This document shows, in pieces, positions 2,747 through 54,982 of a DNA stretch of 64,000 nucleotides (position 1 is the first letter of the stretch; the number at the start of each line of letters is the position of its first letter). The notes under the pieces were generated by a model, which did not search any database, was not told the origin of the DNA, and saw nothing but the letters and a program-made list of their open reading frames with translations. Position numbers and translations under genes: made by a program. Source of the DNA: Dehalococcoidia bacterium (GTDB taxonomy: Bacteria; Chloroflexota; Dehalococcoidia; UBA2979); assembly GCA_963667515.2 (NCBI GenBank), contig CAXXXY010000007.1:137393-201392 (forward strand), in the 5' to 3' direction.

Positions 2747-3757
2747 GTGGAGATCGTCGCCGGCCTGCATCAGATCAAGACGCCGATGCCACGGCCGGAG
2801 CTCCCCTACGTCTTCGCCTATCTCTTCGAGGGCGCAGACGGCGTCACCCTCTTCGACTCCGGCTTCGGCACGCCCGAGGCGACGGCGGCGCTGACCGCAG
2901 GGCTCGCCGCGCTCGGGCACGAGCCCGCCGAGGTGCGGCGGCTGATCATCTCGCACGGCCACCCCGACCACTACGGCATGGCGGGCTGGGTGAAGGAGCG
3001 CGCGCCCGGCTGCGAGCTGGTGATGCTGGAGCAGGAGTGGAGCTGGCTGCTCGCGCGCGAAGGCACGCCTGAGGAGTGGATGCGCCGCTCCGATCTGTGG
3101 CTGACTCGGCACGGCATGGGCGATGACGAGATCGACGCGGGTCACCGCGCGGAGGAGGCCTCGGGCCGCGGCCGCATGGGCTCCTGGGAGAACGTCGAGC
3201 CCGACACGCTGATCACCGACGGCGAGCTGCTCGCCTTCGACGGCTGGGAGCTGGAGGCGGTCTGGACGCCGGGCCACACCCCCGGCCACCTCTGCATGTT
3301 CGAGCGCCGGCACCGGCTAATGCTGACCGGCGACCACGTGCTGCCCCACATCTCGCCCAACGTCTCGCTGCACGCCGAGCAGGAGGGCGCGAGCCCGCTG
3401 GTCGACTTCCGGCGCTCGCTGGAGCGCGTCGCCACCTACGACAGCGCGCTGGGGCTGCCCGCGCACGAGTTCACGATCGCCGACCTGCCGGGGCGCTGCC
3501 GCGAGCTGCTGCACCACCACGACGAGCGGCTGGACGAGGTGACGGCCGCCGTCGCCGTCGCGCCCCCCGAGCGCGGAGCCACGGCGCGCGAGGTCGCTGA
3601 GCGCGTGCACTGGAACACCGGCGCCTTCGCCGACTTCCCGTTGATGATGCAGCGCTCGGCGATCGGCGAGACGCTCTCGCACCTCCAGCTGCTCGCCGAC
3701 GACGGCCGCCTCGCCCGCGTCGAGGACGGCGACGACGCGGTCCACTGGCGCGCCTGA
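2747..3757 (+). CDS. MBL-fold metallo-hydrolase
   Basis: HGHPDHYGMAGW (HxHxDH) and TPGHTPGH motifs. GTG at 2747 is preceded by GGGGAG. The ORF is open from 2651. Confidence 0.8.
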   Translation: MEIVAGLHQIKTPMPRPELPYVFAYLFEGADGVTLFDSGFGTPEATAALTAGLAALGHEPAEVRRLIISHGHPDHYGMAGWVKERAPGCELVMLEQEWSWLLAREGTPEEWMRRSDLWLTRHGMGDDEIDAGHRAEEASGRGRMGSWENVEPDTLITDGELLAFDGWELEAVWTPGHTPGHLCMFERRHRLMLTGDHVLPHISPNVSLHAEQEGASPLVDFRRSLERVATYDSALGLPAHEFTIADLPGRCRELLHHHDERLDEVTAAVAVAPPERGATAREVAERVHWNTGAFADFPLMMQRSAIGETLSHLQLLADDGRLARVEDGDDAVHWRA

Positions 3758-3776
3758 TCCTTTCGGACGGGCTGCC

Positions 3777-3814
3777 GGCAGCGTTCCGCTGCACCGCGGT
3801 GGCTGCCGCTGCTC
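3777..3814 (-). repeat. 38-nt dispersed repeat unit (reverse orientation), locus 1 left
   Basis: Reverse complement GAGCAGCGGCAGCCACCGCGGTGCAGCGGAACGCTGCC matches the family consensus GAGGAGCGGCAGCCC-N5/6-GTGCAGCGGAACGCTGCC. Contains the hairpin GCAGCG-TTC-CGCTGC. Confidence 0.85.
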
Positions 3815-3926
3815 GCGGACCGCGCCCGTCTCCGCTTCGACCCGCCGAGCGCGCTCGGGCCTGGCCACCGGCGTCGCCGCGCCCTCTTCGGCGCTACCCC
3901 CGCGCATGGATGTAGGCGCACTCTCC

Positions 3927-3964
3927 GAGGAGCGGCAGCCCGTGCGGTGCAGCGGAACGCTGCC
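3927..3964 (+). repeat. 38-nt dispersed repeat unit (forward), locus 1 right
   Basis: GAGGAGCGGCAGCCCGTGCGGTGCAGCGGAACGCTGCC. Forms an inverted pair with 3777-3814, with a 112-bp spacer. Confidence 0.85.
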
Positions 3965-3980
3965 GTGGGAGAATCGAGCG

Positions 3981-5525: not shown

Positions 5526-6316
5526 GCGCCGCCCCCGATGGCCGCGCCGCGGCCGGCCTCCCGGCGGTGCGCGTCGTCTCGCTCTACCCGGACGTGATGG
5601 ATGTCTACGCCGACGGCGGCAACCTGATCGCGCTGGCGGCTCGCTGCCGGCGACGCGGCATCGAGCTCGAGTGCATCGACGTGAGCCTGGGCGACGCGCT
5701 ACCCGCGGCCGCCGACCTCGTGCTGATCGGCGGCGGGCAGGACCGCGAGCAGACGCGCGTGGCGCCCGAGCTCGCCGCGCACGGCGCGCGGCTGCGGGCG
5801 TGGCGCGACGAGGGCGTGGCAATGCTCGCGGTCTGCGGCGGCTACCAGCTCTTCGGCCGCGACTACCGCACGTCGGCGGGCGTCGAGCTGCCGGGCGCTG
5901 CCGTCTTCGACGTGACGACCGTGGCGCCCGCCCCCGGCGAGCCGCGCCACGTCGGCGAGGTGCTCGCCCACTGCGCACTTCCCGAGGGGGGCGAGCTCGC
6001 CGGCTTCGAGAACCACGCGGGGCGCAGCTACCTCGGTCCCGGCGCTCGCCCCTTCGCGCGCGTCGAGCGCGGGCGCGGCAACAACGGCGAGGACGGCACC
6101 GAGGGCGCGCTGGCCGCCGAAGCGATCGGCACCTACCTGCACGGGCCGCTGCTGCCTCGACACCCCGCGCTCGCCGATCGGCTGCTCGCGGCCGCGCTGC
6201 GCCACCGCTACGGCGAGGGCGCCCCCCCGCTGGAGCCGCTCGCCGACCCCTACGCCGCGGCGGCGCACCGCGTCGCCGCCCGCGTCGCACGCAAGCGCGG
6301 CGTGCCCCCGCCCTAG
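5522..6316 (+). CDS. gatD: CobQ/GatD-type glutamine amidotransferase (MurT partner)
   Basis: LIGGGQDREQ, AVCGGYQLFG (catalytic Cys), GFENHAGRSYLG, GTYLHGPLLPRHP. GTGA overlap with the murT stop. TAG stop 6314-6316. Confidence 0.85.
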   Translation: MSAAPDGRAAAGLPAVRVVSLYPDVMDVYADGGNLIALAARCRRRGIELECIDVSLGDALPAAADLVLIGGGQDREQTRVAPELAAHGARLRAWRDEGVAMLAVCGGYQLFGRDYRTSAGVELPGAAVFDVTTVAPAPGEPRHVGEVLAHCALPEGGELAGFENHAGRSYLGPGARPFARVERGRGNNGEDGTEGALAAEAIGTYLHGPLLPRHPALADRLLAAALRHRYGEGAPPLEPLADPYAAAAHRVAARVARKRGVPPP

Positions 6317-7368
6317 CTGTAGTTCCCACGTAGGTTGTTGACAGGATGAGGGGCCTCGCCCGCTGCTGTGTGTGACAGCACGGCAGTAGCGAGGAGAGGA
6401 CACCCTCATGGCCCATCGTAACGCGCGGCTGACGCCGCTGACCCGACTCGAGCTCGTGCGGGAAGTGGACGCCGGCTGGCCCCAGGCTGAGGTCGCTCGC
6501 CACTTCCGCGTCTCCCGCCACACCGTTGCCAAGTGGCTGGGGCGCTTCCGGGCGGAGGGAGCGGCAGGGCTCGAGGACCGCAGCTCCGCCCCGCGCGCGC
6601 ATCCCCGGCGCACGCCGCCCGAGCTGGAGCGACGCATCTGCGCCGTGCGACGCACGCAGGGATTCGGGCCGCATCGCATCCAGTGGGCGCTCGGGGTCGC
6701 CCGCTCCACGGTCTACGCCGTGCTGCGGCGCCGCGGCCTCAACCGGCTCGACCGCCTGCACCGCGTCACCCGGGAGCCGGTCCGCTACGAGCACGACGCC
6801 CCCGGCGACCTGCTGCATCTCGACGTGAAGAAGCTCGGGCGCGTCCCCGAGGGCGGCGGCAAGCGAATGGCGTCTGGCTTCGCCGAGACGCGCTCCGGGC
6901 CGCATTCGCGGCGTTCGCTGGGGCTGGAGTACCTACACGTCGCCGTCGACGACCACAGCCGTTACGCCTACGTCTCCGTCCTGCCCGACGAGCGTGGCGC
7001 GAGCTGCGCCGCCTTCCTCGAGCAGGCGCTCGCGGCCTTCCGCCGGCGTGGCGTGCGCGTGCGCCGGGTCCTGACCGACAACGCGAAGGCCTACACCGTC
7101 GCCCGCAGCTTCCACGGCGCCGCCGCTGCCGCAGACGTGCGGCTGTCGCACACGCGGCCCTACCGCCCGCAGACGAACGGCAAAGCCGAGCGTTTCATCC
7201 AGATCCTGCAGAACGAGTGGGCCTACGCCCGCCCCTACCGCTCCAACGCCGAGCGGCTGCGCCAGCTCCCACGCTGGCTCTACCGCTACAATCACCGCCG
7301 ACCGCACGGCGGCGTCGGCGGGGCCGTCCCCGCCTCCCGCCTGTGAACAACCTTCCTGGGTAGTACAG
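6317..7368 (+). mobile_element. IS481-family insertion sequence, copy 2 (1052 bp)
   Basis: Same ends as copy 1. CTAG at 6313-6316 (contains the gatD stop) and 7369-7372. Differs from copy 1 at only a couple of positions (for example P to S in KRMA[P/S]GFAE). Confidence 0.93.
6408..7346 (+). CDS. IS481-family DDE transposase (312 aa)
   Basis: Near-identical to 1092-2030. Confidence 0.93.
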   Translation: MAHRNARLTPLTRLELVREVDAGWPQAEVARHFRVSRHTVAKWLGRFRAEGAAGLEDRSSAPRAHPRRTPPELERRICAVRRTQGFGPHRIQWALGVARSTVYAVLRRRGLNRLDRLHRVTREPVRYEHDAPGDLLHLDVKKLGRVPEGGGKRMASGFAETRSGPHSRRSLGLEYLHVAVDDHSRYAYVSVLPDERGASCAAFLEQALAAFRRRGVRVRRVLTDNAKAYTVARSFHGAAAAADVRLSHTRPYRPQTNGKAERFIQILQNEWAYARPYRSNAERLRQLPRWLYRYNHRRPHGGVGGAVPASRL

Positions 7369-7419
7369 CTAGTCGCGAGCCCCGAACGCCGAGCCGCGAA
7401 GCCCCCGCGGCGGCGACGC

Positions 7420-19375: not shown

Positions 19376-19690
19376 ATGCTCGTTGAGCTGCTGTGGTTCG
19401 ACGGCTGCCCGCACCACCGCTCGGCACGTGCCTTGATCGACGAGGTGGCGGGGGAGCTCGGCGTGGCGCCGCGCGTCGAGGCGATCGAGGTGCCCGACGA
19501 GGTGACGGGCGACCGCGTCTGCTTCCCCGGCTCGCCGACGATCCGCGTCGACGGGGTCGACGTGGAGCCGGGCTGGGAGCCGTGCGCCGACTGCACGCCG
19601 CGCTGCCGCGTCTACGCCACGGCCGAGGGGCTGCGCGGGCTGCCGGAGCGCGAGTGGGTGGCGCGGGCGCTGCTGCGCGCGGCGGACTAG
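19376..19690 (+). CDS. Small Cys-containing protein, possibly thioredoxin-fold; function unknown
   Basis: 104 aa with DGCPHH, FPGSPTIRVDG and CADCTPRC. TAG stop 19688-19690 lies inside the IS flank CTAG. Confidence 0.55.
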   Translation: MLVELLWFDGCPHHRSARALIDEVAGELGVAPRVEAIEVPDEVTGDRVCFPGSPTIRVDGVDVEPGWEPCADCTPRCRVYATAEGLRGLPEREWVARALLRAAD

Positions 19691-20742
19691 CTGTACTACC
19701 CAGGAAGGTTGTTCACAGGCGGGAGGCGGGGACGGCCCCGCCGACGCCGCCGTGCGGTCGGCGGTGATTGTAGCGGTAGAGCCAGCGTGGGAGCTGGCGC
19801 AGCCGCTCGGCGTTGGAGCGGTAGGGGCGGGCGTAGGCCCACTCGTTCTGCAGGATCTGGATGAAACGCTCGGCTTTGCCGTTCGTCTGCGGGCGGTAGG
19901 GCCGCGTGTGCGACAGCCGCACGTCTGCGGCAGCGGCGGCGCCGTGGAAGCTGCGGGCGACGGTGTAGGCCTTCGCGTTGTCGGTCAGGACCCGGCGCAC
20001 GCGCACGCCACGCCGGCGGAAGGCCGCGAGCGCCTGCTCGAGGAAGGCGGCGCAGCTCGCGCCACGCTCGTCGGGCAGGACGGAGACGTAGGCGTAACGG
20101 CTGTGGTCGTCGACGGCGACGTGTAGGTACTCCAGCCCCAGCGAACGCCGCGAATGCGGCCCGGAGCGCGTCTCGGCGAAGCCAGGCGCCATTCGCTTGC
20201 CGCCGCCCTCGGGGACGCGCCCGAGCTTCTTCACGTCGAGATGCAGCAGGTCGCCGGGGGCGTCGTGCTCGTAGCGGACCGGCTCCCGGGTGACGCGGTG
20301 CAGGCGGTCGAGCCGGTTGAGGCCGCGGCGCCGCAGCACGGCGTAGACCGTGGAGCGGGCGACCCCGAGCGCCCACTGGATGCGATGCGGCCCGAATCCC
20401 TGCGTGCGTCGCACGGCGCAGATGCGTCGCTCCAGCTCGGGCGGCGTGCGCCGGGGATGCGCGCGCGGGGCGGAGCTGCGGTCCTCGAGCCCTGCCGCTC
20501 CCTCCGCCCGGAAGCGCCCCAGCCACTTGGCAACGGTGTGGCGGGAGACGCGGAAGTGGCGAGCGACCTCAGCCTGGGGCCAGCCGGCGTCCACTTCCCG
20601 CACGAGCTCGAGTCGGGTCAGCGGCGTCAGCCGCGCGTTACGATGGGCCATGAGGGTGTCCTCTCCTCGCTACTGCCGTGCTGTCACACACAGCAGCGGG
20701 CGAGGCCCCTCATCCTGTCAACAACCTACGTGGGAACTACAG
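19691..20742 (-). mobile_element. IS481-family insertion sequence, copy 3 (1052 bp)
   Basis: Same ends in inverted orientation. CTAG at 19687-19690 and 20743-20746. Confidence 0.93.
19713..20651 (-). CDS. IS481-family DDE transposase (312 aa)
   Basis: Protein identical to copy 1. Confidence 0.93.
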   Translation of the reverse strand: MAHRNARLTPLTRLELVREVDAGWPQAEVARHFRVSRHTVAKWLGRFRAEGAAGLEDRSSAPRAHPRRTPPELERRICAVRRTQGFGPHRIQWALGVARSTVYAVLRRRGLNRLDRLHRVTREPVRYEHDAPGDLLHLDVKKLGRVPEGGGKRMAPGFAETRSGPHSRRSLGLEYLHVAVDDHSRYAYVSVLPDERGASCAAFLEQALAAFRRRGVRVRRVLTDNAKAYTVARSFHGAAAAADVRLSHTRPYRPQTNGKAERFIQILQNEWAYARPYRSNAERLRQLPRWLYRYNHRRPHGGVGGAVPASRL

Positions 20743-21042
20743 CTAGCCCGCGGCGGGGGGCGTGGCGGCGGGCGCCTCCTCGGGCGCGGCGCCGGGCTCG
20801 TGCGCGGGGGCGGGTGGGTAGTCGGGCGCGTCGCCGAAGCGCGCGGTCGCCATCGTGTAGCCGACCCAGAACGCCAGCGCCGAGACGACGGCGAGCGCCG
20901 CGAGCAGCGGGATCGCGAGCGTCGCGTACAAGCGCCGGCGCACGCCCAGCAGGAACAGCACGAGCTGCAGCACCGAGCCCACCATCAGCGCCCGACCGAG
21001 CAGCCGCGCGCGCTCCTCCACCACGATCGCCTGGATGCTCAT
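20743..21042 (-). CDS. Small membrane protein (99 aa), unknown function
   Basis: MSIQAIVVEE.. followed by two hydrophobic helices. ATGA overlap with the upstream Trm112-like gene. Its stop (CTA on the plus strand, 20743-20745) is inside the IS flank CTAG. Confidence 0.6.
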   Translation of the reverse strand: MSIQAIVVEERARLLGRALMVGSVLQLVLFLLGVRRRLYATLAIPLLAALAVVSALAFWVGYTMATARFGDAPDYPPAPAHEPGAAPEEAPAATPPAAG

Positions 21043-21251: not shown

Positions 21252-21352
21252 GGTCGCGCGCTCGATGATAGGGACGGCGCGCGCCCGGCGGCAAACCCGC
21301 GCCGCGCCGGCCGAGCGGGGGCGGTTGCCAGGGCGGTTGGTAGACTCCGCGC

Positions 21353-22144
<792 letters not shown>

Positions 22145-23196
22145 CTGTACTACCCAGGAAGGTTGTTCACAGGCGGGAGGCGGGGACGGCCCCGCCGACG
22201 CCGCCGTGCGGTCGGCGGTGATTGTAGCGGTAGAGCCAGCGTGGGAGCTGGCGCAGCCGCTCGGCGTTGGAGCGGTAGGGGCGGGCGTAGGCCCACTCGT
22301 TCTGCAGGATCTGGATGAAACGCTCGGCTTTGCCGTTCGTCTGCGGGCGGTAGGGCCGCGTGTGCGACAGCCGCACGTCTGCGGCGGCGGCGGCGCCGTG
22401 GAAGCTGCGGGCGACGGTGTAGGCCTTCGCGTTGTCGGTCAGGACCCGGCGCACGCGCACGCCACGCCGGCGGAAGGCCGCGAGCGCCTGCTCGAGGAAG
22501 GCGGCGCAGCTCGCGCCACGCTCGTCGGGCAGGACGGAGACGTAGGCGTAACGGCTGTGGTCGTCGACGGCGACGTGTAGGTACTCCAGCCCCAGCGAAC
22601 GCCGCGAATGCGGCCCGGAGCGCGTCTCGGCGAAGCCAGGCGCCATTCGCTTGCCGCCGCCCTCGGGGACGCGCCCGAGCTTCTTCACGTCGAGATGCAG
22701 CAGGTCGCCGGGGGCGTCGTGCTCGTAGCGGACCGGCTCCCGGGTGACGCGGTGCAGGCGGTCGAGCCGGTTGAGGCCGCGGCGCCGCAGCACGGCGTAG
22801 ACCGTGGAGCGGGCGACCCCGAGCGCCCACTGGATGCGATGCGGCCCGAATCCCTGCGTGCGTCGCACGGCGCAGATGCGTCGCTCCAGCTCGGGCGGCG
22901 TGCGCCGGGGATGCGCGCGCGGGGCGGAGCTGCGGTCCTCGAGCCCTGCCGCTCCCTCCGCCCGGAAGCGCCCCAGCCACTTGGCAACGGTGTGGCGGGA
23001 GACGCGGAAGTGGCGAGCGACCTCAGCCTGGGGCCAGCCGGCGTCCACTTCCCGCACGAGCTCGAGTCGGGTCAGCGGCGTCAGCCGCGCGTTACGATGG
23101 GCCATGAGGGTGTCCTCTCCTCGCTACTGCCGTGCTGTCACACACAGCAGCGGGCGAGGCCCCTCATCCTGTCAACAACCTACGTGGGAACTACAG
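22145..23196 (-). mobile_element. IS481-family insertion sequence, copy 4 (1052 bp)
   Basis: Same ends. CTAG at 22141-22144 and 23197-23200. One synonymous difference from copy 3 was noticed. Confidence 0.93.
22167..23105 (-). CDS. IS481-family DDE transposase (312 aa)
   Basis: Protein identical to copies 1 and 3. Confidence 0.93.
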   Translation of the reverse strand: MAHRNARLTPLTRLELVREVDAGWPQAEVARHFRVSRHTVAKWLGRFRAEGAAGLEDRSSAPRAHPRRTPPELERRICAVRRTQGFGPHRIQWALGVARSTVYAVLRRRGLNRLDRLHRVTREPVRYEHDAPGDLLHLDVKKLGRVPEGGGKRMAPGFAETRSGPHSRRSLGLEYLHVAVDDHSRYAYVSVLPDERGASCAAFLEQALAAFRRRGVRVRRVLTDNAKAYTVARSFHGAAAAADVRLSHTRPYRPQTNGKAERFIQILQNEWAYARPYRSNAERLRQLPRWLYRYNHRRPHGGVGGAVPASRL

Positions 23197-23204
23197 CTAG
23201 CGGC

Positions 23205-23684
23205 GTGGCGAGCGCGGAGAGCGGCGCGCCGCGAGGCGAGCGCGACGCCGAGGCGGAGCTGCCGACGTCGCTGCGGCTGCTGCGCGACGCGCGCTCGGTG
23301 GCGGTGGTGGCTCGCTCGCCGCGGCTCGACCGGCCGTGGCACCGCATCGCGAGCTACCTCGTGAGCGCGGGCTACGAGGTGCAGCTCGTGAACCCGGAGC
23401 TCGACGAAGCGCTGGGCCGCCGCTGCTACGACCGCGTGCAGGACCTGCCTGAGCCCGTCGACCTTGTTGATGTCTTCCGCCGCGGGCCGCAGACGCCGCC
23501 CGTCGCCGAGGACGCGGTGGCGGCGGGGGCGGGCGCGCTCTGGCTGCAGCTCGGCATCGTCAGCGCGCGCGCCGAGGAGATCGCGCGGACGGGCGGGCTG
23601 GAGGTGGTGATGGACCGCTGCACGCTGATCGAGCACCAGCGGCTGCGCGCGCTCGGCGTGGAGGCGCCCCGCCCGCGGGGCTGA
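23205..23684 (+). CDS. CoA-binding domain protein (YccU/YneT-like)
   Basis: ARSVAVVARSPRLDRPWHRIASYL..VDLVDVFRR..GAGALWLQLG. The only in-frame start after the IS is GTG 23205, 5 nt past the CTAG. Confidence 0.7.
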   Translation: MASAESGAPRGERDAEAELPTSLRLLRDARSVAVVARSPRLDRPWHRIASYLVSAGYEVQLVNPELDEALGRRCYDRVQDLPEPVDLVDVFRRGPQTPPVAEDAVAAGAGALWLQLGIVSARAEEIARTGGLEVVMDRCTLIEHQRLRALGVEAPRPRG

Positions 23685-38201: not shown

Positions 38202-38225
38202 GACCCCCCGAGCCCGCTCGCACGG

Positions 38226-38861
38226 GTGCATGCTACGCTCGTCACCGCCCACACAGCGAGGAGGTGTCTCGGGGCAGCCGAGATCGCCGCGACCGGCCAC
38301 CCGGTCCGCTTCGACGTCGAGTACCCGGAGGGCGTCACCCGCTGGATGATCCTCGTGCGCTGGATCCTCGCGATCCCGCAGCTCTTCGTCGGGAACCTCC
38401 TCGGCGAGCTCGCGCGACTCCTCACCTTCTTCGCGTTCTTCGCAGTGCTCTTCACGCGGCGCTACCCGCGGGGGATGTTCATGCTGGCGGTGGGCTGCCT
38501 GCGCTGGTAGTACAACGTCTTCGCGTACGTGCTCTTCCACGACGCGCCGTACCCGCCGTTCTCCTTCGACGCGGGCCACTACCCGCACCTCGTCTTCGAC
38601 GTGCCGCCCCGCGAGGAGTTCAACCGCTGGCTGCCGCTCGTGAAGTGGCTGCTGGCCGTGCCGCACTACCTCGTGCTGGCGCTGCTGCTCGCCGTGGGGA
38701 TCTTCGTGTGGCTGTTCGCGGCGATCGCGCTGCTTGTCACGGGCACGTTCCCGCGCGGCGCCTTCGACTACCTCGCGGGCGTCGGCCGCTGGGGCGCGCG
38801 GGTCACCGCCTACGTCTACCTGATGGTGGACGAGTACCCGCCGTTCTCGATGAAGGCGTAG
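38226..38861 (+). pseudogene. DUF4389-like double-repeat membrane protein interrupted by an in-frame TAG (38508-38510)
   Basis: ORFs 38226-38510 and 38529-38861 share one frame. Together they align with the intact paralogue at 46653-47285 (RRYPRGMF..LRW-stop-YNVFAY versus QKYPRWWF..LRFQSRVGAY; NRWLPLVKWLL in both). Confidence 0.7.
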
Positions 38862-46652: not shown

Positions 46653-47285
46653 ATGGCGGTTCGCGACGCCTCTGACTATCCGCTCCGCTACTCGATCGAC
46701 TACCCCGAAGAGGGGCTGAGCCGGCTCACGACGGCGTTTCGCCTGATCTGGCTCATCCCGATCGTCATCATCGTGTCGCTCGTGAGCACCGGCGGGTTCG
46801 GCCGCCCGCCGGTCTTCGCCGCGTTTCTCGGTGGCACTGGCGGCGTCCTGTTTCTCGCGCCGCTGCTGATGATCCTTTTCCGCCAGAAGTACCCGCGCTG
46901 GTGGTTCGATTGGAACGTCGAGGTGCTTCGCTTCCAGTCCCGCGTCGGTGCCTACATGGTGCTGCTCACGGACCGCTACCCCTCCACCGACGAGGAGCAG
47001 GCGATCCACATCGAGGTCGACTACCCGGACGTGGAGCGCGACCTCAATCGCTGGCTGCCGCTGGTGAAGTGGCTGCTCGTGATCCCGCACTTTATCGTGC
47101 TGATCCTGCTCGGGGTGGTCGTGATGTTCGCGGTGATCGGCGCCTGGTTCGCGATCCTGTTCACCGGGCACTACCCGCGGGGCCTCTTCAACTTCGTGGT
47201 CGGGGTGGGCCGGTGGGGGCTGCGGGTCCAGGGCTACGCCGCGTTGCTGGTCACGAACCGCTACCCGCCGTTTTCGCTGCAGTAG
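46653..47285 (+). CDS. DUF4389-like double-repeat membrane protein (intact paralogue)
   Basis: Internal duplication, each half having a YP..R(W/L) block followed by TM helices and ..F(R/T)..YPR... Ends NRYPPFSLQ. Confidence 0.65.
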   Translation: MAVRDASDYPLRYSIDYPEEGLSRLTTAFRLIWLIPIVIIVSLVSTGGFGRPPVFAAFLGGTGGVLFLAPLLMILFRQKYPRWWFDWNVEVLRFQSRVGAYMVLLTDRYPSTDEEQAIHIEVDYPDVERDLNRWLPLVKWLLVIPHFIVLILLGVVVMFAVIGAWFAILFTGHYPRGLFNFVVGVGRWGLRVQGYAALLVTNRYPPFSLQ

Positions 47286-47389
47286 GCAGGGCTCCGCCGC
47301 GCTCGAGGGCTCGCGCTCCGGGGAGATAGCAGCGAGTCGCCAGCCCTCGACGCGGCCGCTCGTCAGCGCTGCTTCCACCGTCTCGCTTC

Positions 47390-47426
47390 GAGGAGCGGCA
47401 GCCCCCGGATGCAACGGAACGTTGCC
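47390..47426 (+). repeat. 37-nt dispersed repeat unit, locus 2
   Basis: GAGGAGCGGCAGCCCCCGGATGCAACGGAACGTTGCC. The hairpin GCAACG-GAA-CGTTGC carries compensatory changes relative to the other copies. Confidence 0.8.
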
Positions 47427-47427
47427 C

Positions 47428-48147
47428 CTAGGGTCGAGCGGAACGCTCGCGGGGCGGGGTGCCTTCCTGCCAGGCGCCGCCGTCGGGGCCCCACTCGCGC
47501 TTCCAGATCGGCGCCGTCTCCTTCACCCGGTCGACGAGGCGGGCGGCGGCGCGGAACGCCTCCGCACGGTGGGCCGCGGAAACGGCCGCGACGATCGCGG
47601 GGTCGCCAACCGCGAGCTCGCCAACGCGGTGGTGCACCGCGATGCGGTGCAGCGGGTGGCCGTCGGCCTCCGCCTCGGCGCGCACCTCCTCGATCACGCG
47701 CGCGATCTCACGCTCGGCCATCTCGGCGTACGCCTCGTACTCCAGCCGCTCGACGGCGCGCCCCTCGTGGTGGTCGCGCACCACGCCCTCGAAGAGCACG
47801 ACCGCGCCCGAGGCGTCGGTGCGCACGAGATCGCGCAGCGCCCGCGCGTCGAGCGGCTCGCCGGTGACGAGCACGGCGGGCGGCTCGTTCGGCGGCTCGG
47901 CGCCACCCGCGACCGGCGTGATCAGCGCCACGCGGTCGCCGTCGCGGAGCGGCGGGGCGTCGGCATGCGCGTACTCCTCGTTGACCGCGATCGCGACGCG
48001 CTCGAGGTGCGGGCGCAGCGCCGGGTGGCGCTCGGCGAGGCGCTCGCGCAGATCCGCGAGCGACACGGAGTCGCCCGCGAACTCCTCGACGAGCTCGTCG
48101 CCCGCGAGCTCGCGCAGCGCGGCGAAGAGCCGGATCGTGACGCGCAT
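47428..48147 (-). CDS. MoaD-MoaE fusion (molybdopterin synthase small and large subunits in one ORF)
   Basis: MRVTIRLFAALRELAGD..DGDRVALITPVAGG (MoaD with internal GG) followed by GAVVLFEGVVRDHHEGRAVERLEYEAYAEMAEREI..HRVGELAVGD..PIWKRE (MoaE). Confidence 0.85.
   Translation of the reverse strand: MRVTIRLFAALRELAGDELVEEFAGDSVSLADLRERLAERHPALRPHLERVAIAVNEEYAHADAPPLRDGDRVALITPVAGGAEPPNEPPAVLVTGEPLDARALRDLVRTDASGAVVLFEGVVRDHHEGRAVERLEYEAYAEMAEREIARVIEEVRAEAEADGHPLHRIAVHHRVGELAVGDPAIVAAVSAAHRAEAFRAAARLVDRVKETAPIWKREWGPDGGAWQEGTPPRERSARP
47435..47449. repeat. Isolated hairpin module CGAGCG-GAA-CGCTCG of the repeat family
   Basis: Same GAA loop and CG closing pairs. The outer stem covaries. Overlaps the last codons of the MoaD-MoaE gene on the minus strand. 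Confidence 0.65.
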
Positions 48148-48898: not shown

Positions 48899-48933
48899 GG
48901 TGACTCCCTCGGGGGATTCCACGGGGCGACTAG

Positions 48934-49990
48934 GTGTACTACCCAGGAATGTTGTTCACAGGCGGGAGGCGGGGACGGCCCCGCCGACGCCGCCGTGCGG
49001 TCGGCGGTGATTGTAGCGGTAGAGCCAGCGTGGGAGCTGGCGCAGCCGCTCGGCGTTGGAGCGGTAGGGGCGGGCGTAGGCCCACTCGTTCTGCAGGATC
49101 TGGATGAAACGCTCGGCTTTGCCGTTCGTCTGCGGGCGGTAGGGCCGCGTGTGCGACAGCCGCACGTCTGCGGCAGCGGCGGCGCCGTGGAAGCTGCGGG
49201 CGACGGTGTAGGCCTTCGCGTTGTCGGTCAGGACCGGCGCACGCGCACGCGCACGCCACGCCGGCGGAAGGCCGCGAGCGCCTGCTCGAGGAAGGCGGCG
49301 CAGCTCGCGCCACGCTCGTCGGGCAGGACGGAGACGTAGGCGTAACGGCTGTGGTCGTCGACGGCGACGTGTAGGTACTCCAGCCCCAGCGAACGCCGCG
49401 AATGCGGCCCGGAGCGCGTCTCGGCGAAGCCAGGCGCCATTCGCTTGCCGCCGCCCTCGGGGACGCGCCCGAGCTTCTTCACGTCGAGATGCAGCAGGTC
49501 GCCGGGGGCGTCGTGCTCGTAGCGGACCGGCTCCCGGGTGACGCGGTGCAGGCGGTCGAGCCGGTTGAGGCCGCGGCGCCGCAGCACGGCGTAGACCGTG
49601 GAGCGGGCGACCCCGAGCGCCCACTGGATGCGATGCGGCCCGAATCCCTGCGTGCGTCGCACGGCGCAGATGCGTCGCTCCAGCTCGGGCGGCGTGCGCC
49701 GGGGATGCGCGCGCGGGGCGGAGCTGCGGTCCTCGAGCCCTGCCGCTCCCTCCGCCCGGAAGCGCCCCAGCCACTTGGCAACGGTGTGGCGGGAGACGCG
49801 GAAGTGGCGAGCGACCTCAGCCTGGGGCCAGCCGGCGTCCACTTCCCGCACGAGCTCGAGTCGGGTCAGCGGCGTCAGCCGCGCGTTACGATGGGCCATG
49901 AGGGTGTCCTCTCCTCGCTACTGCCGTGCTGTCACACACAGCAGCGGGCGAGGCCCCTCATCCTGTCAACAACCTACGTGGGAACTACAA
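48934..49990 (-). mobile_element. IS481-family insertion sequence, copy 5, degenerate (1057 bp)
   Basis: Both terminal bases changed (GTGTAC.. and ..CTACAA instead of CTGTAC.. and ..CTACAG). One IR mismatch (GGAATGTT). Internal -1 (CCC to CC) plus +6 (GCGCAC x3 at 49237-49254). CTAG flanks at 48930-48933 and 49991-49994. Confidence 0.9.
48956..49899 (-). pseudogene. Frameshifted IS481-family transposase
   Basis: Split into ORFs 49228-49899 and 48956-49774 by the net +5-bp indel near 49232-49254. Confidence 0.88.
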
Positions 49991-50099
49991 CTAGTGGGCG
50001 CGCGCCGCTAGTGCCTCAGCGGCGCGCTTCCTACAATCGATGCTGCGCTCACCGCCGAGCCGCGGGCCCAGCTCGCGCCGACGGGGCGGCGGAGGCGCC

Positions 50100-51057
50100 G
50101 TGATCATCACCGTGACGCTCAACCCGGCGATCGATCAGACGATCGAGATCGAGGGCCTGCGGATCGGCGACACCAACCGCGTGCTCGCGAACCGCTGGGA
50201 CATCGGCGGCAAGGGCATCAACGTCGCGCGCGCTCTCAAGGAGCTCGGCTACGAGCCGCTGGCGGCCGGCTTCGCCCCCGGCGCGCTGGGGCGGATGATC
50301 GAGGACCAGCTCTTCGACTCCGGCATCGGCTGCGAGTTCGTCTCCGTGCCCGGAGAGACGCGCACCAACATCACCATCCTCGATCGCGGCAGCCACGCGC
50401 ACACCGCGCTCGCGGCGCCTGGCCCCCCCGTCACGCCCGACGCCAGCCGCGCGCTAAGCACGCGGCTCGCGCGGCGGCTGCGGCCGGGGAGCTGGCTCGT
50501 GCTGGCGGGCTCGGTGCCGCCGCCGGGCGAGCCGACGCTCTACGCCGAGCTCGTCGAGCTCGCGGCGCGGCACGAGTGCTTCACCGCGCTCGACGCCGAC
50601 GGCCCCGTGGTGCAGCGGCTGCTGGAGCTGGGCGCGCGCCCCACGCTGCTGAAGATCAACGAGCAGGAGCTCGAGCGGCTGATGGGCGCGCCGATGCGCA
50701 GCGAGGAGGCGGTGCGCGCCGCCGCCGAGTGGCTGCAGGGCCGCGGGGATGCGCGACGTGGTGGTCACGCGCGGCGCGGCCGGGGCCGTCGCGGTGACGG
50801 CCGAGGGGCGCTTCCGCGTGCTGCCGCCGCAGGTCGAGGTGATCTCCGCTCTGGGCGCGGGCGACGGCTTCCTCGCGGGGCTGCTGCTGGGGCTCGTGCG
50901 CACGGGCGACTGGCGCTACGCGCTGCGCCTCGCCGCCGCGTGCTGCGCCGCCGTCTGCTGCGCCAGCGGCCCCGCCTGCCGCGACGTGCAGGTGCAGGCG
51001 CTGCTCGCGGGCGCCGGAGTCGAGGCACTGGGCGTGCCCGCCGCGGCGCTTCCGTAG
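50100..51057 (+). pseudogene. PfkB-family sugar kinase (1-phosphofructokinase/tagatose-6-P kinase type) with a one-base frame break
   Basis: VIITVTLNPAIDQT..DIGGKGINVARAL is in the frame of nt 50100. RDVVVTRGAAGAV..SALGAGDGFLAGLL is in the frame of nt 50749. The switch falls in a GGGG run at about 50745-50748. Confidence 0.8.
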
Positions 51058-52604: not shown

Positions 52605-53831
52605 ATGGACTGGAACGACACGACGGAGCAGGCGGCGTTTCGCGCCGAGGTCCGCGACCTCGTCGAGGAGAAGGTGCCGACCCGCTACCGCGAGATGGCG
52701 AAGCACAACCATCGCGAGATGGGCTACCCCTGGCCGCAGGACCGCGCCTCGGGCGAGCCGCATCGCGTGGAGGCCGCCGCCGAGTGGTTCGAGGCGGTCT
52801 CGGAGAAGGGCTGGATCGCGCCGCACTGGCCCAAGGAGTTCGGCGGCGGGGGCTTCAGCCCCATGGAGCAGTACATCTACAACGCCGAGCTGGCGACGGC
52901 CAACGTCCCCGCGCCCGGCTCGAACGTGGGCATCGGCATGCTCGGCCCGGCGCTGATCGTGCACGGCACCGACGAGCAGAAGAAGCAGTTCCTGCCGCCG
53001 ATCCTCAAGGGCGAGGTGGTGTGGTCGCAGGGCTTCTCCGAGCCCAGCGCCGGCTCGGACCTCGCGGCGCTGCAGACGCGTGCCGTCCGCGACGGCGACG
53101 AGTACGTGGTGAATGGCCAGAAGATTTGGACCAGCCATGCGCACTACGCGGACTGGGTGTTGCTGCTCGCGCGCACCGACCCGGAGGCGCCGAAGCACCG
53201 CGGCATCTCGTTCCTGTTGCTGGACATCCGCTCGCCCGGCGTCTCGGTGCGGCCGATCATCGACATGGCCTGGGGCCACGAGGTGAACGAGACCTTCTAC
53301 GAGGACGTGCACGTCCCCGCCGACCAGATGGTGGGCGAGGAGAACCGCGGCTGGTACGTCGCGATGACGCTCCTGGACAACGAGCGCTCTAACGTGACCG
53401 GCGCGATCATGATGGACCGGCAAATCCAACGCCTTTTGGAGGATGTGAACGGCGCGGGTTCGGCCCGCTCGCGCGTCGACCGCTACGATGCGCTGCGGCA
53501 GGAGATCGCCGAGCGATACGTCGAGACCGGCGTGATGATGAACTTCTCGCTGCGGATCATCACGATCCAGGCGGCCGGCCAGGTGCCGAACTACGAGGCC
53601 TCGGTCGCGAAGATGTTCGGCTCGGAGGCCGCGCAGCGCATCCACCGCACGGGGATGAAGGCGTTCGGCCTGTACGCGAATCTCTGGGACCCGCACGGCG
53701 ATCACGCGCCGATGGAAGCCGCGTTCACCCACGGCTACGTGCGCTCCGTTCCCGGCACGATCGCCGCGGGCAGCTCGGAGATCCAGCGCAATGTGATCGC
53801 CACGCGCGGCCTCGGCCTCCCCCGCGGCTAG
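52605..53831 (+). CDS. Acyl-CoA dehydrogenase family protein
   Basis: WSQGFSEPSAGSDLAAL, GQKIWTSHA, GSSEIQRNVIATRGLGLP. GGAGGA precedes ATG 52605. Confidence 0.85.
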   Translation: MDWNDTTEQAAFRAEVRDLVEEKVPTRYREMAKHNHREMGYPWPQDRASGEPHRVEAAAEWFEAVSEKGWIAPHWPKEFGGGGFSPMEQYIYNAELATANVPAPGSNVGIGMLGPALIVHGTDEQKKQFLPPILKGEVVWSQGFSEPSAGSDLAALQTRAVRDGDEYVVNGQKIWTSHAHYADWVLLLARTDPEAPKHRGISFLLLDIRSPGVSVRPIIDMAWGHEVNETFYEDVHVPADQMVGEENRGWYVAMTLLDNERSNVTGAIMMDRQIQRLLEDVNGAGSARSRVDRYDALRQEIAERYVETGVMMNFSLRIITIQAAGQVPNYEASVAKMFGSEAAQRIHRTGMKAFGLYANLWDPHGDHAPMEAAFTHGYVRSVPGTIAAGSSEIQRNVIATRGLGLPRG

Positions 53832-53868
53832 CCAGCGTTCCGCTGGACTCGAGGGGCTTCCGCTTCTG
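53831..53868 (-). repeat. 38-nt dispersed repeat unit (reverse), locus 3 left
   Basis: Reverse complement CAGAAGCGGAAGCCCCTCGAGTCCAGCGGAACGCTGGC. Starts at the last base of the acyl-CoA dehydrogenase stop (CTAG 53828-53831). Confidence 0.8.
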
Positions 53869-54044
53869 CCAAGGGGTCGATCTAGCTCGGGCGTCCGCCG
53901 CAGGGCCAGAGGGCTCGCGGGGCGCTGATCCGATCGGCGAGCGCCGATCCGAGCGCGCAATCGCGGCGAGCAGCCTACCGTGCCTCGACGGCGTGATGCC
54001 CCCGGCCCGCCAGCCGCCGCGCCCGAGCCCGAGCGCCGCCCCAG

Positions 54045-54081
54045 CAGGAGCGGAGCCCCTCGAGTGCAGCGGAACGCTGCC
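54045..54081 (+). repeat. 37-nt dispersed repeat unit (forward), locus 3 right
   Basis: CAGGAGCGGAGCCCCTCGAGTGCAGCGGAACGCTGCC. Forms an inverted pair with 53831-53868, with a 176-bp spacer. Confidence 0.8.
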
Positions 54082-54091
54082 GGCAGCGCCT

Positions 54092-54112
54092 GGAGTCCAG
54101 CGGAACGCTGGC
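54092..54112 (+). repeat. Partial third repeat copy (GGAGTCCAGCGGAACGCTGGC), locus 3
   Basis: The hairpin CCAGCG-GAA-CGCTGG is identical to the left copy. Lies 6 nt upstream of the rpsF -35 box. Confidence 0.7.
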
Positions 54113-54117
54113 TGGCG

Positions 54118-54147
54118 TTGACCGGGGGGGAGGGGGGGTCCTAGACT
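54118..54147 (+). promoter_or_regulatory. Sigma-70-type promoter (TTGACC-N18-TAGACT) for rpsF-ssb-rpsR
   Basis: -35 at 54118-54123. The spacer is GGGGGGGAGGGGGGGTCC. -10 at 54142-54147. Confidence 0.5.
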
Positions 54148-54319
54148 TGGGCCGAGCGCCGCGGGCGTCTGGATCTGCGCCGTGTGCCTGCCCGGCTGCT
54201 GCGTAGCGGCGCCGGGCAGTAGTGTGTCGGGGAGCAGTGTCCGGGGCACCGTGTTGGGCGGCGTGGGCGCCGGGCCGTATCGCGACGGCCGTGAGACGCC
54301 CGCCGTACGGGGAGAGTGC

Positions 54320-54982
54320 GTGAACGACTACGAGCTGGTGTACGTCCTGAGCCCGCGCCTCTCCTCCGACGAGGGAGAGCGGGCTTCGAAGTGGGTCGAG
54401 GGGCTCATTGGCGAGAGCGGCGGCGAGCTGCTCTCCACGGACGTGTGGGGGCGGCGCCGGCTCGCCTACCCGATCAAGCACCAGTTCGAAGGCACCTACG
54501 TCTACAGCACCTTCCGGCTCGACCCGTCCGCGACCGTCCGCATCGAGTCGCAGCTCGGGCTGTCGGAGGACGTGCTGCGGCACCTCATCATTCGCGGCAT
54601 CGTCGAGGGCGGGAAGCCCGAGGCGCAGTCCGCGCGGCTGATGGCGTCGAGCCGGCCGGCCGTCGCGCCGCCCCCGCCGCCGCCCGTCGCGGCAGCGGAG
54701 GTGACGACCGACGAGGCAGCGGGCGAGGCACCTGTCGAGGCGCCCGCGGAGGCCGCCGCCGAGGACGCGCCGTCCCCGCCGGAAGCGAGCGCGAGCGAGG
54801 CGACCGACGCCGCGCCGAGCGAGGCAGCGCCAGAGGCCGAGGCAGCGCCTGAGACCGAGGCAGCGCCAGAGATCGAGGCGGCAGCTGAGATCGAGGCAAC
54901 GCCAGAGGTCGAGGCAACGCCGGAGGTCGAGGTCGCCGGCGAGTCGACGCCTGCGGAGCCGGAGCCGGCGCGCGCGGAGTAG
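54320..54982 (+). CDS. rpsF: 30S ribosomal protein S6 with long repetitive acidic tail
   Basis: YELVYVLSPRLSSDE..WGRRRLAYPIKHQFEGTYV. GGAGAG precedes GTG 54320. About 120 extra C-terminal residues. Confidence 0.85.
   Translation: MNDYELVYVLSPRLSSDEGERASKWVEGLIGESGGELLSTDVWGRRRLAYPIKHQFEGTYVYSTFRLDPSATVRIESQLGLSEDVLRHLIIRGIVEGGKPEAQSARLMASSRPAVAPPPPPPVAAAEVTTDEAAGEAPVEAPAEAAAEDAPSPPEASASEATDAAPSEAAPEAEAAPETEAAPEIEAAAEIEATPEVEATPEVEVAGESTPAEPEPARAE
54821..54928 (+). repeat. 6 x 18-bp in-frame tandem repeat (EAAPEA-type hexapeptides) in the S6 tail
   Basis: GAGGCAGCGCCAGAGGCC and five variants, encoding EAAPEA EAAPET EAAPEI EAAAEI EATPEV EATPEV. Confidence 0.9.

Follow-up and report, generated by a model that had tools for sequence, protein, structure and literature searches.

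A probable REP-like family of short palindromic repeats without a GTAG or CGTC tag in uncultured high-GC Chloroflexota

Repetitive extragenic palindromic sequences (REPs) are repeats of 20-40 bp which are found mostly downstream of open reading frames (ORFs), form dimers in opposite orientation and have occasional intragenic copies (PMC3733652). The only REP reported there from the Chloroflexi is GTAG-23 of Thermomicrobium roseum. Repeats of the REP type are among the commonest non-coding features of bacteria, and they are well studied only in the Proteobacteria, where they are tied through the GTAG tag to the REP-associated tyrosine transposases (RAYTs). Here we describe a repeat of about 38 nt, composed of a conserved head and a small hairpin, in a 64-kb stretch of DNA (the window) from a Dehalococcoidia bacterium (contig CAXXXY010000007.1, positions 137,393 to 201,392). 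The family to which it belongs is lineage-specific and probably of the same kind as REPs, bacterial interspersed mosaic elements (BIMEs) and REPINs, ie REP doublets that form hairpins; all of these are short interspersed palindromic repeats. Its host clade, as judged from MurT and acyl-CoA dehydrogenase homologues, is uncultured, high-GC, Dehalococcoidia-like Chloroflexota from marine and freshwater sources. The family itself is new, but the type of repeat is well known and does not amount to a novel kind of system; it stands outside the named superfamilies, novelty being judged against the Rfam, plasmid, viral and literature libraries searched.

The likeness to REPs and BIMEs (PMC3733652) is considerable. 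The units are dispersed, hairpin-forming repeats of ~38 nt, almost wholly extragenic and mostly just downstream of ORFs; they occur as opposite-orientation dimers and in small clusters, some copies are intragenic, and presence or absence varies between related genomes. Unlike members of the REP superfamilies, however, they have neither GTAG nor CGTC at either end, and the stem is 6 bp with a 3-nt loop, compared to 8-14 bp in REPs. A conserved, non-palindromic head of 14 nt also belongs to the unit, head and hairpin each occurring alone, and the host phylum is a different one. As in the REPIN-RAYT system (Bertels & Rainey 2011, PMC3116915; PMC3337134), inverted units ~70-180 bp apart can be folded into one long hairpin, and singletons resemble decayed doublets, with head-only partners at window positions 47302-47319 and at 9813-9834 in L074 (L numbers denote sequences from other assemblies). 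In contrast to that system, the spacer is conserved neither in sequence nor in length, the GTAG cleavage motif is absent and no RAYT, whose gene usually has the repeats on its flanks, was seen in the 64-kb window. It is the lack of a GTAG or CGTC tag and of a conserved spacer that places the family outside any named REP superfamily.

Two sequences were read as long stretches, the 64-kb window of the source genome and L074, over 21.5 kb. The G+C content of the window is ~75%. The degenerate pattern AGCGG-N0-1-AGCC-N7-12-ARCGGAACGYT matched five times in the window, compared to 0.00 in 100 shuffles, and the 11-nt hairpin core ARCGGAACGYT matched seven times where 0.06 matches were expected. A covariance model of head and hairpin was built from 14 units. 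It gave the five full units 57.6-64.9 bits and two hairpin-only copies 24.5-26.7 bits, and the next-best match in the window scored 14.5 bits, leaving a clear gap. When the five units were aligned with 60-nt flanks, similarity was limited to ~40-45 nt. The pattern counts and the gap in model scores indicate that the repeat is real and not an artefact of base composition.

The five full units (A to E, Table 1) listed in the initial annotation of the window were all confirmed, and the two hairpin-only copies that it mentioned were located by the core search at 47435-47449 and 54097-54111. All four of its stem variants, GCAGCG/CGCTGC, GCAACG/CGTTGC, CGAGCG/CGCTCG and CCAGCG/CGCTGG, are present. 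The unit length of 37-38 nt given there is right for the core, but the unit is somewhat longer, with a weakly conserved CTCTYC ahead of the head; likewise the GAA loop holds for the window copies but is not invariant, as AAA loops occur in relatives. The statement that all copies are intergenic needs a small correction. The hairpin at 47435-47449 lies inside the last five codons of a minus-strand moaD/E gene, and unit D touches the TAG stop of an acyl-CoA dehydrogenase (ACAD) gene, so it is not strictly intergenic.

A unit consists of four parts. The head, conserved in sequence and non-palindromic, is (CTCTYC)GAGGAGCGGCAGCC. After it come a variable linker of 5-8 nt, often a small palindrome (CTCGAG, CCTAGG, CCGCGG, CCATGG), then a single T (18 of 20 aligned copies), and finally a stem of 6 bp, closed by an RAA triloop, in which the outer pairs exchange CG and GC in matched fashion. 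The head carries a half-repeat of the hairpin, AGCGGCA and AGCGGAA being ~18 nt apart. Head and hairpin module can each stand alone, and tandem junctions, where the 3' arm of one hairpin meets the next head, reuse the palindrome GCTGCC-GGCAGC. The linkers (in the window at 53847-53854, 54057-54063, 47427-47433 and 3793-3800) are often perfect loopless palindromes of 6-8 bp, such as CTCGAG, CCTAGG and ACCGCGGT, with CCATGG in L084; their sequence varies between copies yet remains palindromic. In L092 head and linker pair over 16 bp with a neighbouring inverted head-only copy. The head GGCAGC can instead pair with the 3' arm GCTGCC, as it does in the minimum free energy fold of unit B, but such pairing was rejected as a general feature; it fails in the CCAGCG and CGAGCG subfamilies. 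The fold energies of single units are unexceptional against shuffles in the 75% G+C background, and support for the hairpin comes from covariation and not from fold energy.

That covariation is significant against both shuffled and displaced controls. Standard pairs occupied 95.2% of the stem cells in 14 non-identical units, with 10 cells changed on both sides, and 93.3% in 20 model-aligned copies, with 15 such cells. In neither set did any of 500 shuffles reach the observed value for percentage paired, for cells with a change on either side of the pair or for the covariation score; pair counts and counts of pair types were unexceptional against the shuffles. Sliding the 3' partner by 1-3 columns reduced pairing to 10-48% (14 units) and 9-47% (20 copies). 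The changes on both sides fell in three of the six stem pairs, in either set, and nearly all were CG/GC swaps. Among 120 cells there was no G.U and a single A.C, and no pair showed a one-sided (G.U) change. With such counts, the asymmetry of G.U and A.C, which was tried as a means of choosing the transcribed strand, was uninformative save for a weak hint of pairing at the DNA level. Matched change is also seen between orthologous sites: the stem of unit D is CCAGCG/CGCTGG in the window and CGAGCG/CGCTCG in L110. The L074 orthologue of unit B has a G.G mismatch in the outer pair, as is expected of a half-step between the GC..GC and CC..GG stems.

Every copy with callable neighbours has its hairpin end directed toward the flanking ORF and its head toward the middle of the intergenic region. 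In stop-proximal copies the hairpin is 0, 0, 2, 5, 6, 8 or 19 nt from the stop codon, and two overlap the stop; in eight of nine independent stop-proximal loci hairpin and stop codon overlap or are at most 8 nt apart. For start-proximal copies, the distance from the end of the copy to the start codon or -35 box that follows is 6-25 nt. Liang, Rudd and Deutscher reportedly found in 2015 that many E. coli REPs lie within ~15 nt of a stop codon. The start-proximal copies are in the sense orientation and the stop-proximal copies antisense, a mirror-symmetric rule by which both strands of the unit are sense at different sites. Of the hairpins of the window, five are on the plus and two on the minus strand, in spite of the nearly uniform direction of genes and of GC skew. 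CTAG was tried as an insertion target and rejected, for although seven of nine stop-proximal units touch TAG, that is the majority stop (30/45), so there is no enrichment. The absence of G.U pairs, together with the mirror-symmetric geometry, makes us lean slightly toward a constraint at the DNA level, or templating of whole arms, over a strand-specific RNA.

Head-to-head inverted pairs with the hairpins at their outer tips are found at loci 1 and 3 of the window and in L084, L085 and L092, and are able to form a long-range stem of 40-50 bp. The initial annotation had compared two units facing each other across 112 bp at locus 1 to REP/BIME or REPIN organisation. That arrangement was confirmed, with complementarity extending through the arms given in Table 1, and the recurrence of inverted pairs at the five places supports the comparison. 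As in REPINs, the inverted doublets of both window loci fold into one long hairpin. The RNA fold of locus 1 has an energy of -133.1 kcal/mol (z = -5.66) and that of locus 3 an energy of -198.1 kcal/mol (z = -7.14).

The individual units and their surroundings are collected in Table 1; neighbouring genes were identified by third-position G+C and Pfam. At locus 1 the partial head and the 3' arm of unit A together give the palindrome GCTGCC-GGCAGC, and the junction between E and E2, CGCTGCCGGCAGC, is identical. Unit B ends 16 nt before the GTG start of murT, just 5' of a GGGAGAA ribosome-binding box, the start having been set by alignment to the one called in L074. Gene callers can be misled by the GAGGAG in the head of the unit, which resembles a ribosome-binding site. 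Thus the MurT entry P0001 of a database (527 aa, 99% identical) was apparently called from a GTG at 3942, inside unit B, the alignment with relatives giving 3981 as the true start. The degenerate head at locus 2 corresponds to a weak covariance-model match at 47282-47329 (-) of 11.4 bits and may be compared to the head-only copy of L074; it is likely to be a decayed partner of unit C. At locus 3 the E2 hairpin is the exact reverse complement of the D hairpin and stops 6 nt short of the rpsF -35 box, while the segment containing E's own hairpin (54064-54094) reads as a 31-nt insertion which breaks the long stem with D.

Table 1. Repeat units, partial units and associated features of the three window loci. 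Scores are from the covariance model.
Feature	Position (strand)	Description	Score (bits)
Locus 1		MBL-fold (metallo-beta-lactamase-fold) gene (TGA, ends 3757), A (-), 112 bp, B (+), murT (GTG 3981)	
Partial second head	3767-3776 (-)	Reverse complement GGCAGCCCGT; adjoins unit A hairpin and fills most of the gap to the stop	
Unit A	3777-3814 (-)	Core 3778-3792; head GAGCAGCGGCAGCC 3801-3814	62.4
Unit A hairpin		19 nt past the TGA stop (3755-3757) of the MBL-fold gene	
Unit B	3927-3964 (+)	Head 3927-3940; core 3949-3963	64.9
Inverted pair A/B	3776-3965	51-nt arms, 84% complementarity; interior unconserved	
Locus 2		DUF4389 gene (ends 47285), C (+), C2, moaD/E fusion gene (minus strand; stop 47428-47430)	
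Degenerate head	47302-47319 (-)	Head and CTCGAG linker, no hairpin; plus strand CTCGAGGGCTCGCGCTCC; 17 nt past the DUF4389 gene stop	
Unit C	47390-47426 (+)	Stem GCAACG/CGTTGC; hairpin 2 nt from the moaD/E stop	60.9
C2, hairpin only	47434-47450 (+)	TCGAGCGGAACGCTCGC; within the last moaD/E codons	24.5
Locus 3		ACAD gene (TAG, ends 53831), D (-), 176 bp, E (+), E2, promoter, rpsF	
Unit D	53831-53868 (-)	Stem CCAGCG/CGCTGG begins on the base after the ACAD TAG stop (53829-53831)	57.6
Unit E	54045-54081 (+)	Head with 1-nt deletion; linker CTCGAG; stem GCAGCG/CGCTGC	58.0
Truncated unit E2	54085-54115 (+)	Partial head GGCAGCGCC; linker CTGGAG; hairpin TCCAGCGGAACGCTGGC 54095-54111; model positions 19-49	26.7
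Locus 3, whole	53831-54111	D pairs with E head and linker plus E2 hairpin	
rpsF promoter, sigma-70-like	54118-54147	TTGACC-18-TAGACT; conserved in relatives	

Filled and empty sites, the comparison of which had been proposed in the initial annotation, were both found among relatives, at murT and in the ACAD-rpsF spacer. In L074 (MurT 87% identical) unit B is kept, its head and hairpin unchanged while the remaining spacer has diverged, and the position of unit A has a head and CTCGAG linker only, without a hairpin. No unit was found upstream of murT in L113 (MurT 78%; 96 bp) or L100 (71%; 40 bp), which keep the ribosome-binding box GCCGTG(T/G)GAGAATCG despite the unit-free spacer. In the ACAD-rpsF spacer, L110 (ACAD 93%) has kept D together with a degenerate E2, L101-105 and L111 (ACAD ~91-92%) have a decayed trace after the stop, consisting of GCGT(T/C)CCGC and then the head-like GGCGGCCGCTGCC, and nothing recognisable of the units was found in L107/108 and L112. 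The distance from the ACAD stop to the -35 box is only ~89-130 bp in these relatives, and the rpsF promoter and leader are conserved in relatives with or without units. Units have therefore been gained or lost at gene boundaries while close relatives diverged.

The hairpin module can also appear by itself, as insertions of 15-31 nt. The 3' end of moaD/E in the window differs from that of L101 by an in-frame insertion of 15 nt which is exactly the hairpin core, so that the protein ends in ...GTPPRERSARP* instead of ...GTPARP*, five residues having been added. An unrelated ThiS-like gene of L087 has ...SGG followed by the same hairpin-coded tail, ERSARP*, and unit C resembles an L087-type unit into which an extra hairpin has been inserted. 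These three cases and the 31-nt segment of E mark the hairpin module as the most dynamic part of the unit. The ThiS/MoaD-like product of L087 (32-313, minus strand) has the conserved C-terminal Gly-Gly followed by six residues, ERSARP, derived from hairpin and linker; a functional protein would require removal of this tail, so that the Gly-Gly becomes exposed. In-frame additions of this sort are reminiscent of the Rickettsia palindromic elements, but here the insertion is 15 nt, compared to 100-150 bp, affects the extreme 3' end only, and two cases have been seen.

Copies outside the window were sought by pattern and by covariance model. Among the matches listed for a loose pattern in the genome collection, almost all were due to chance and the only true member was in L045, a metagenome-assembled genome of a Dehalococcoidia bacterium from Lake Baikal. 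That copy adjoins the TAG stop of an ORF which is yajQ-like by eye only. A stricter scan of metagenomes, in which the four outer stem pairs were left free, found members in the western Arctic Ocean assemblies L079/L085, L083/L084, L087 and L092, as well as orthologues of unit B 5' of murT in L074/75/91/98. The covariance model detected extra copies on those short metagenome contigs, some with an AAA loop, and several contigs of relatives, 1.3-1.9 kb long, carry 3-5 copies each. The copies from seven related assemblies (L045, L074, L079/L085, L083/L084, L087, L092 and L110) scored 45-67 bits; true full units scored at least 45 bits, and loci fetched by the loose pattern alone at most 36 bits. 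The proposal of a new dispersed family is thereby strengthened, further copies being present in related Chloroflexota assemblies. The intergenic regions that hold the units in L045 (~880-1200) and L092 (~1150-1318) are also crowded with other G/C-rich hairpin repeats, eg CCCCTTCCCGCGCAGGGAAGGGG and CCCCTCTCCTGCGAAGCGGGAGAGGGG, and the clade may carry several small repeat families. The loose pattern also caught an unrelated mycobacterial repeat, CCGGACAGAGCGGAGCCGGGGATGAGCAGCGGAACGCTCTTGG, at L004 2523-2662, L028 4293-4596, L018 1491-1520 and L046 862-891; Mycolicibacterium chlorophenolicum has two copies at each locus (110 and 274 nt apart), and two other mycobacteria have a single copy each.

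The repeat is not a fragment of any known element or RNA family in the libraries searched. At the gathering threshold of Rfam 15, the sole match in the window was a S-adenosylmethionine (SAM) riboswitch elsewhere, and at E <= 5 nothing relevant was found for loci 1 and 3. BLAST against plasmids gave no match to the repeat, a scan of viral contigs gave chance hits only (8.5 bits), and in the searchable literature the literal repeat sequence led only to one unrelated paper on cloning. Known signals were also compared by eye. For an extracytoplasmic function (ECF) sigma -35 element (GGAAC) the comparison covered unit B, where no GTT -10 element is found 16-18 nt downstream. For a sigma-54 promoter (GG...TGCA) it covered B, C and E, but the spacing is 14-15 and not 12, and the TGCA is within the covarying stem. 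Recoding or read-through after UAG was rejected, units being found also after TGA and TAA and before genes; read-through of ACAD would add an unsupported 17-aa tail.

We consider that the family probably belongs with REPs, BIMEs and REPINs. In the broad sense of the term the findings agree with a REP, ie a hairpin-forming unit of 38 nt, within the range of 20-40 bp, at many extragenic sites (seven hairpins in 64 kb), with opposite-orientation dimers mainly downstream of ORFs. The elements would then be, or have been, non-autonomous mobile DNA, copied via a single-stranded hairpin intermediate by an enzyme encoded elsewhere, a RAYT-like HUH transposase being the obvious candidate. Persistence may be limited to copies which are tolerated or useful at transcript ends, where a stop-proximal hairpin, or the long stem of a pair, could serve as a 3'-end barrier, a terminator or an insulator between adjacent transcription units.

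Several observations weigh against this assignment. The initial annotation had reported that there is no GTAG head and no RAYT in the window, and both statements held. Neither GTAG nor CGTC is conserved in the 20 aligned copies, which have G-R-T before the stem and mostly C after it, and Pfam scans covering 50 ORFs, the greater part of the GC3-supported set (GC3 being third-position G+C), found no Y1/RAYT transposase in the window, only IS481-type DDE transposases. Typical REPs have a far longer stem. The sequences enclosed by inverted pairs (74-176 bp, five loci) share no similarity beyond short G+C-rich words, and the conserved spacer length and sequence of REPINs were not found. No U-tract follows the hairpins and a terminator scan found none at three loci. 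The long stretches available for counting copies amount to 64 kb for the source genome and 21.5 kb for L074, the latter with one full unit. The set of copies used for covariation was partly chosen as at least three-quarters paired, and A5 was fitted to the model; the comparisons of D with L110 and of the G.G in L074 are free of this selection bias. The conservation of unit B in the window and L074 amid diverged flanks could reflect a host function rather than selfish persistence. As to the compensatory changes, which had been taken as a sign of selection on pairing, the covariation is significant, also between orthologues, but matched changes have other possible sources, as in a multi-copy mobile palindrome the same pattern would be left by exchange for a different member of the family or by repair templated on the hairpin.

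The host function just mentioned might be that of a transcript-end signal, the units being terminators, 3'-end protectors or insulators which evolved in the host and are kept alike by selection and gene conversion without being mobile. This would account for hairpins 0-19 nt after stops or just before a promoter or ribosome-binding site, for a compensatory change that keeps pairing at an orthologous site (D compared to L110) and for the constancy of B in the window and L074 while its flanks diverge; read-through would be prevented by long stems, and a G+C-rich hairpin right after a stop codon is what an intrinsic terminator looks like. An intrinsic terminator, however, combines its G+C-rich hairpin with a U-run, which is missing here, the terminator scan being empty, and one sequence is reused at many loci, with opposite-orientation copies upstream of genes. 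The head of 14 conserved but non-pairing nucleotides and the common loop point to shared descent rather than convergence, and with start-proximal copies sense and stop-proximal copies antisense there is no favoured RNA strand. About 40 of the 45 window genes have no unit, hairpin-only insertions occur within coding sequence, and there were no G.U pairs in 120 cells. We regard this explanation as unlikely. It is very unlikely that the units are a cis-regulatory site (protein operator or RNA leader) of a regulon that includes murT-gatD and the rpsF operon. B is directly 5' of murT, where it is conserved in L074, E and E2 are directly 5' of the rpsF promoter, and the half-repeat shared by head and hairpin (AGCGGCA and AGCGGAA, ~18 nt apart) would suit an operator. 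Yet the murT site is missing at 78% and 71% MurT identity though the ribosome-binding box is conserved, and L101, L107 and L112 have kept the promoter and leader of rpsF but not the units. Most copies adjoin the 3' ends of unrelated genes (MBL-fold, acyl-CoA dehydrogenase, moaD/E, yajQ-like by eye, ThiS-like), the stem bases covary where base-specific recognition would require fixed bases, and no Rfam family matches.

Movement by a DDE transposase is a further explanation, in which the units are the terminal inverted repeats of miniature inverted-repeat transposable elements (MITEs) and a pair with its interior makes up one element. Inverted pairs with hairpins at the outer tips around 74-176-bp interiors at five loci, a genome rich in IS481-family copies, and the existence of both filled and empty sites would all fit. 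MITEs, however, have terminal inverted repeats with a target-site duplication and a conserved interior; here no target-site duplication was seen at the ends of any inverted pair and the interiors share no similarity. Singletons, tandem units and hairpin-only insertions of 15-31 nt exist, and the IS481 ends (CTGTAGTTCCCACGTAGG...) are unlike the units, that insertion sequence (IS) duplicating CTAG. We regard this explanation, too, as very unlikely. A more speculative proposal, which we think improbable, is that the mobile entity is the hairpin module of 15-17 nt itself and not a REPIN-like doublet. It would be copied into ORF boundaries by an undescribed mechanism, either a RAYT-independent enzyme recognising the AGCGG(A/C)A half-site common to head and hairpin or hairpin-templated repair synthesis, and would land on stops, rewrite last codons and supply a new stop from a CCTAGG linker, in a clade that prefers TAG.

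The stop codons of the 45 window ORFs are 30 TAG, 15 TGA and no TAA. L074 has 17 TAG and 5 TGA, and three further relatives (L100, L101 and L112) have ~50% TAG. To our knowledge TAG is normally the rarest bacterial stop, in high-GC species also, and the preference of this clade looks unusual. The IS481-family element of the window is ~1.07 kb long, encodes a 312-aa DDE transposase and is present in five copies 98-100% identical (987-2058, 6303-7376, 19683-20754, 22137-23209 and 48922-50011), with terminal repeats CTGTAGTTCCC... and ...GGGTAGTACAG and CTAG on both sides in the two copies read. Targets of IS481 are of the NCTAGN type. One copy lies on the TAG stop of a coxE-like gene (608-1000), another on that of the ORF 21344-22144, and a third at a CTAG in the last gatD codons; none of the copies is present at the same places in the relatives L074 and L099-L112. 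The tatA-MBL-murT-gatD block, which contains locus 1, is flanked by two direct copies, and a C-terminal fragment of a PfkB kinase (50683-51057) lies beside an IS copy.

The rpsF promoter and its leader of ~170 nt (54118-54320) are conserved in L101, L107, L110, L111 and L112. Within this leader, at ~54189-54219, is a hairpin, CTGCCCGGC...GCCGGGCAG. The leader has no Rfam match and may be a clade-specific S6/S18 autoregulatory leader. The SAM riboswitch (RF00162, 9743-9869 (+), 70.6 bits) is 5' of a gene for a pyridoxal phosphate (PLP)-dependent enzyme, within a cluster of ThiS/ThiF/PALP/Rrf2/rhodanese sulfur-transfer genes. The DUF4389 gene next to unit C (46653-47285) is absent at the same position in the relatives L101-L112, and two further DUF4389 ORFs stand in tandem at 38202-38861.

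The family adds a tag-less example, with an unusually small hairpin and a conserved head, from an uncultured marine and freshwater Chloroflexota clade. A comparable case is that of the CGTC-type REPs, for which likewise no transposase is known. The empty and filled sites, the half-step and completed stem change, and the hairpin-only insertions are natural before-and-after comparisons which could help in understanding the origin and persistence of tag-less REPs. Annotating the family would also improve the gene models of the clade, in which the units can give rise to false starts and the hairpins extend or adjoin the ends of ORFs.

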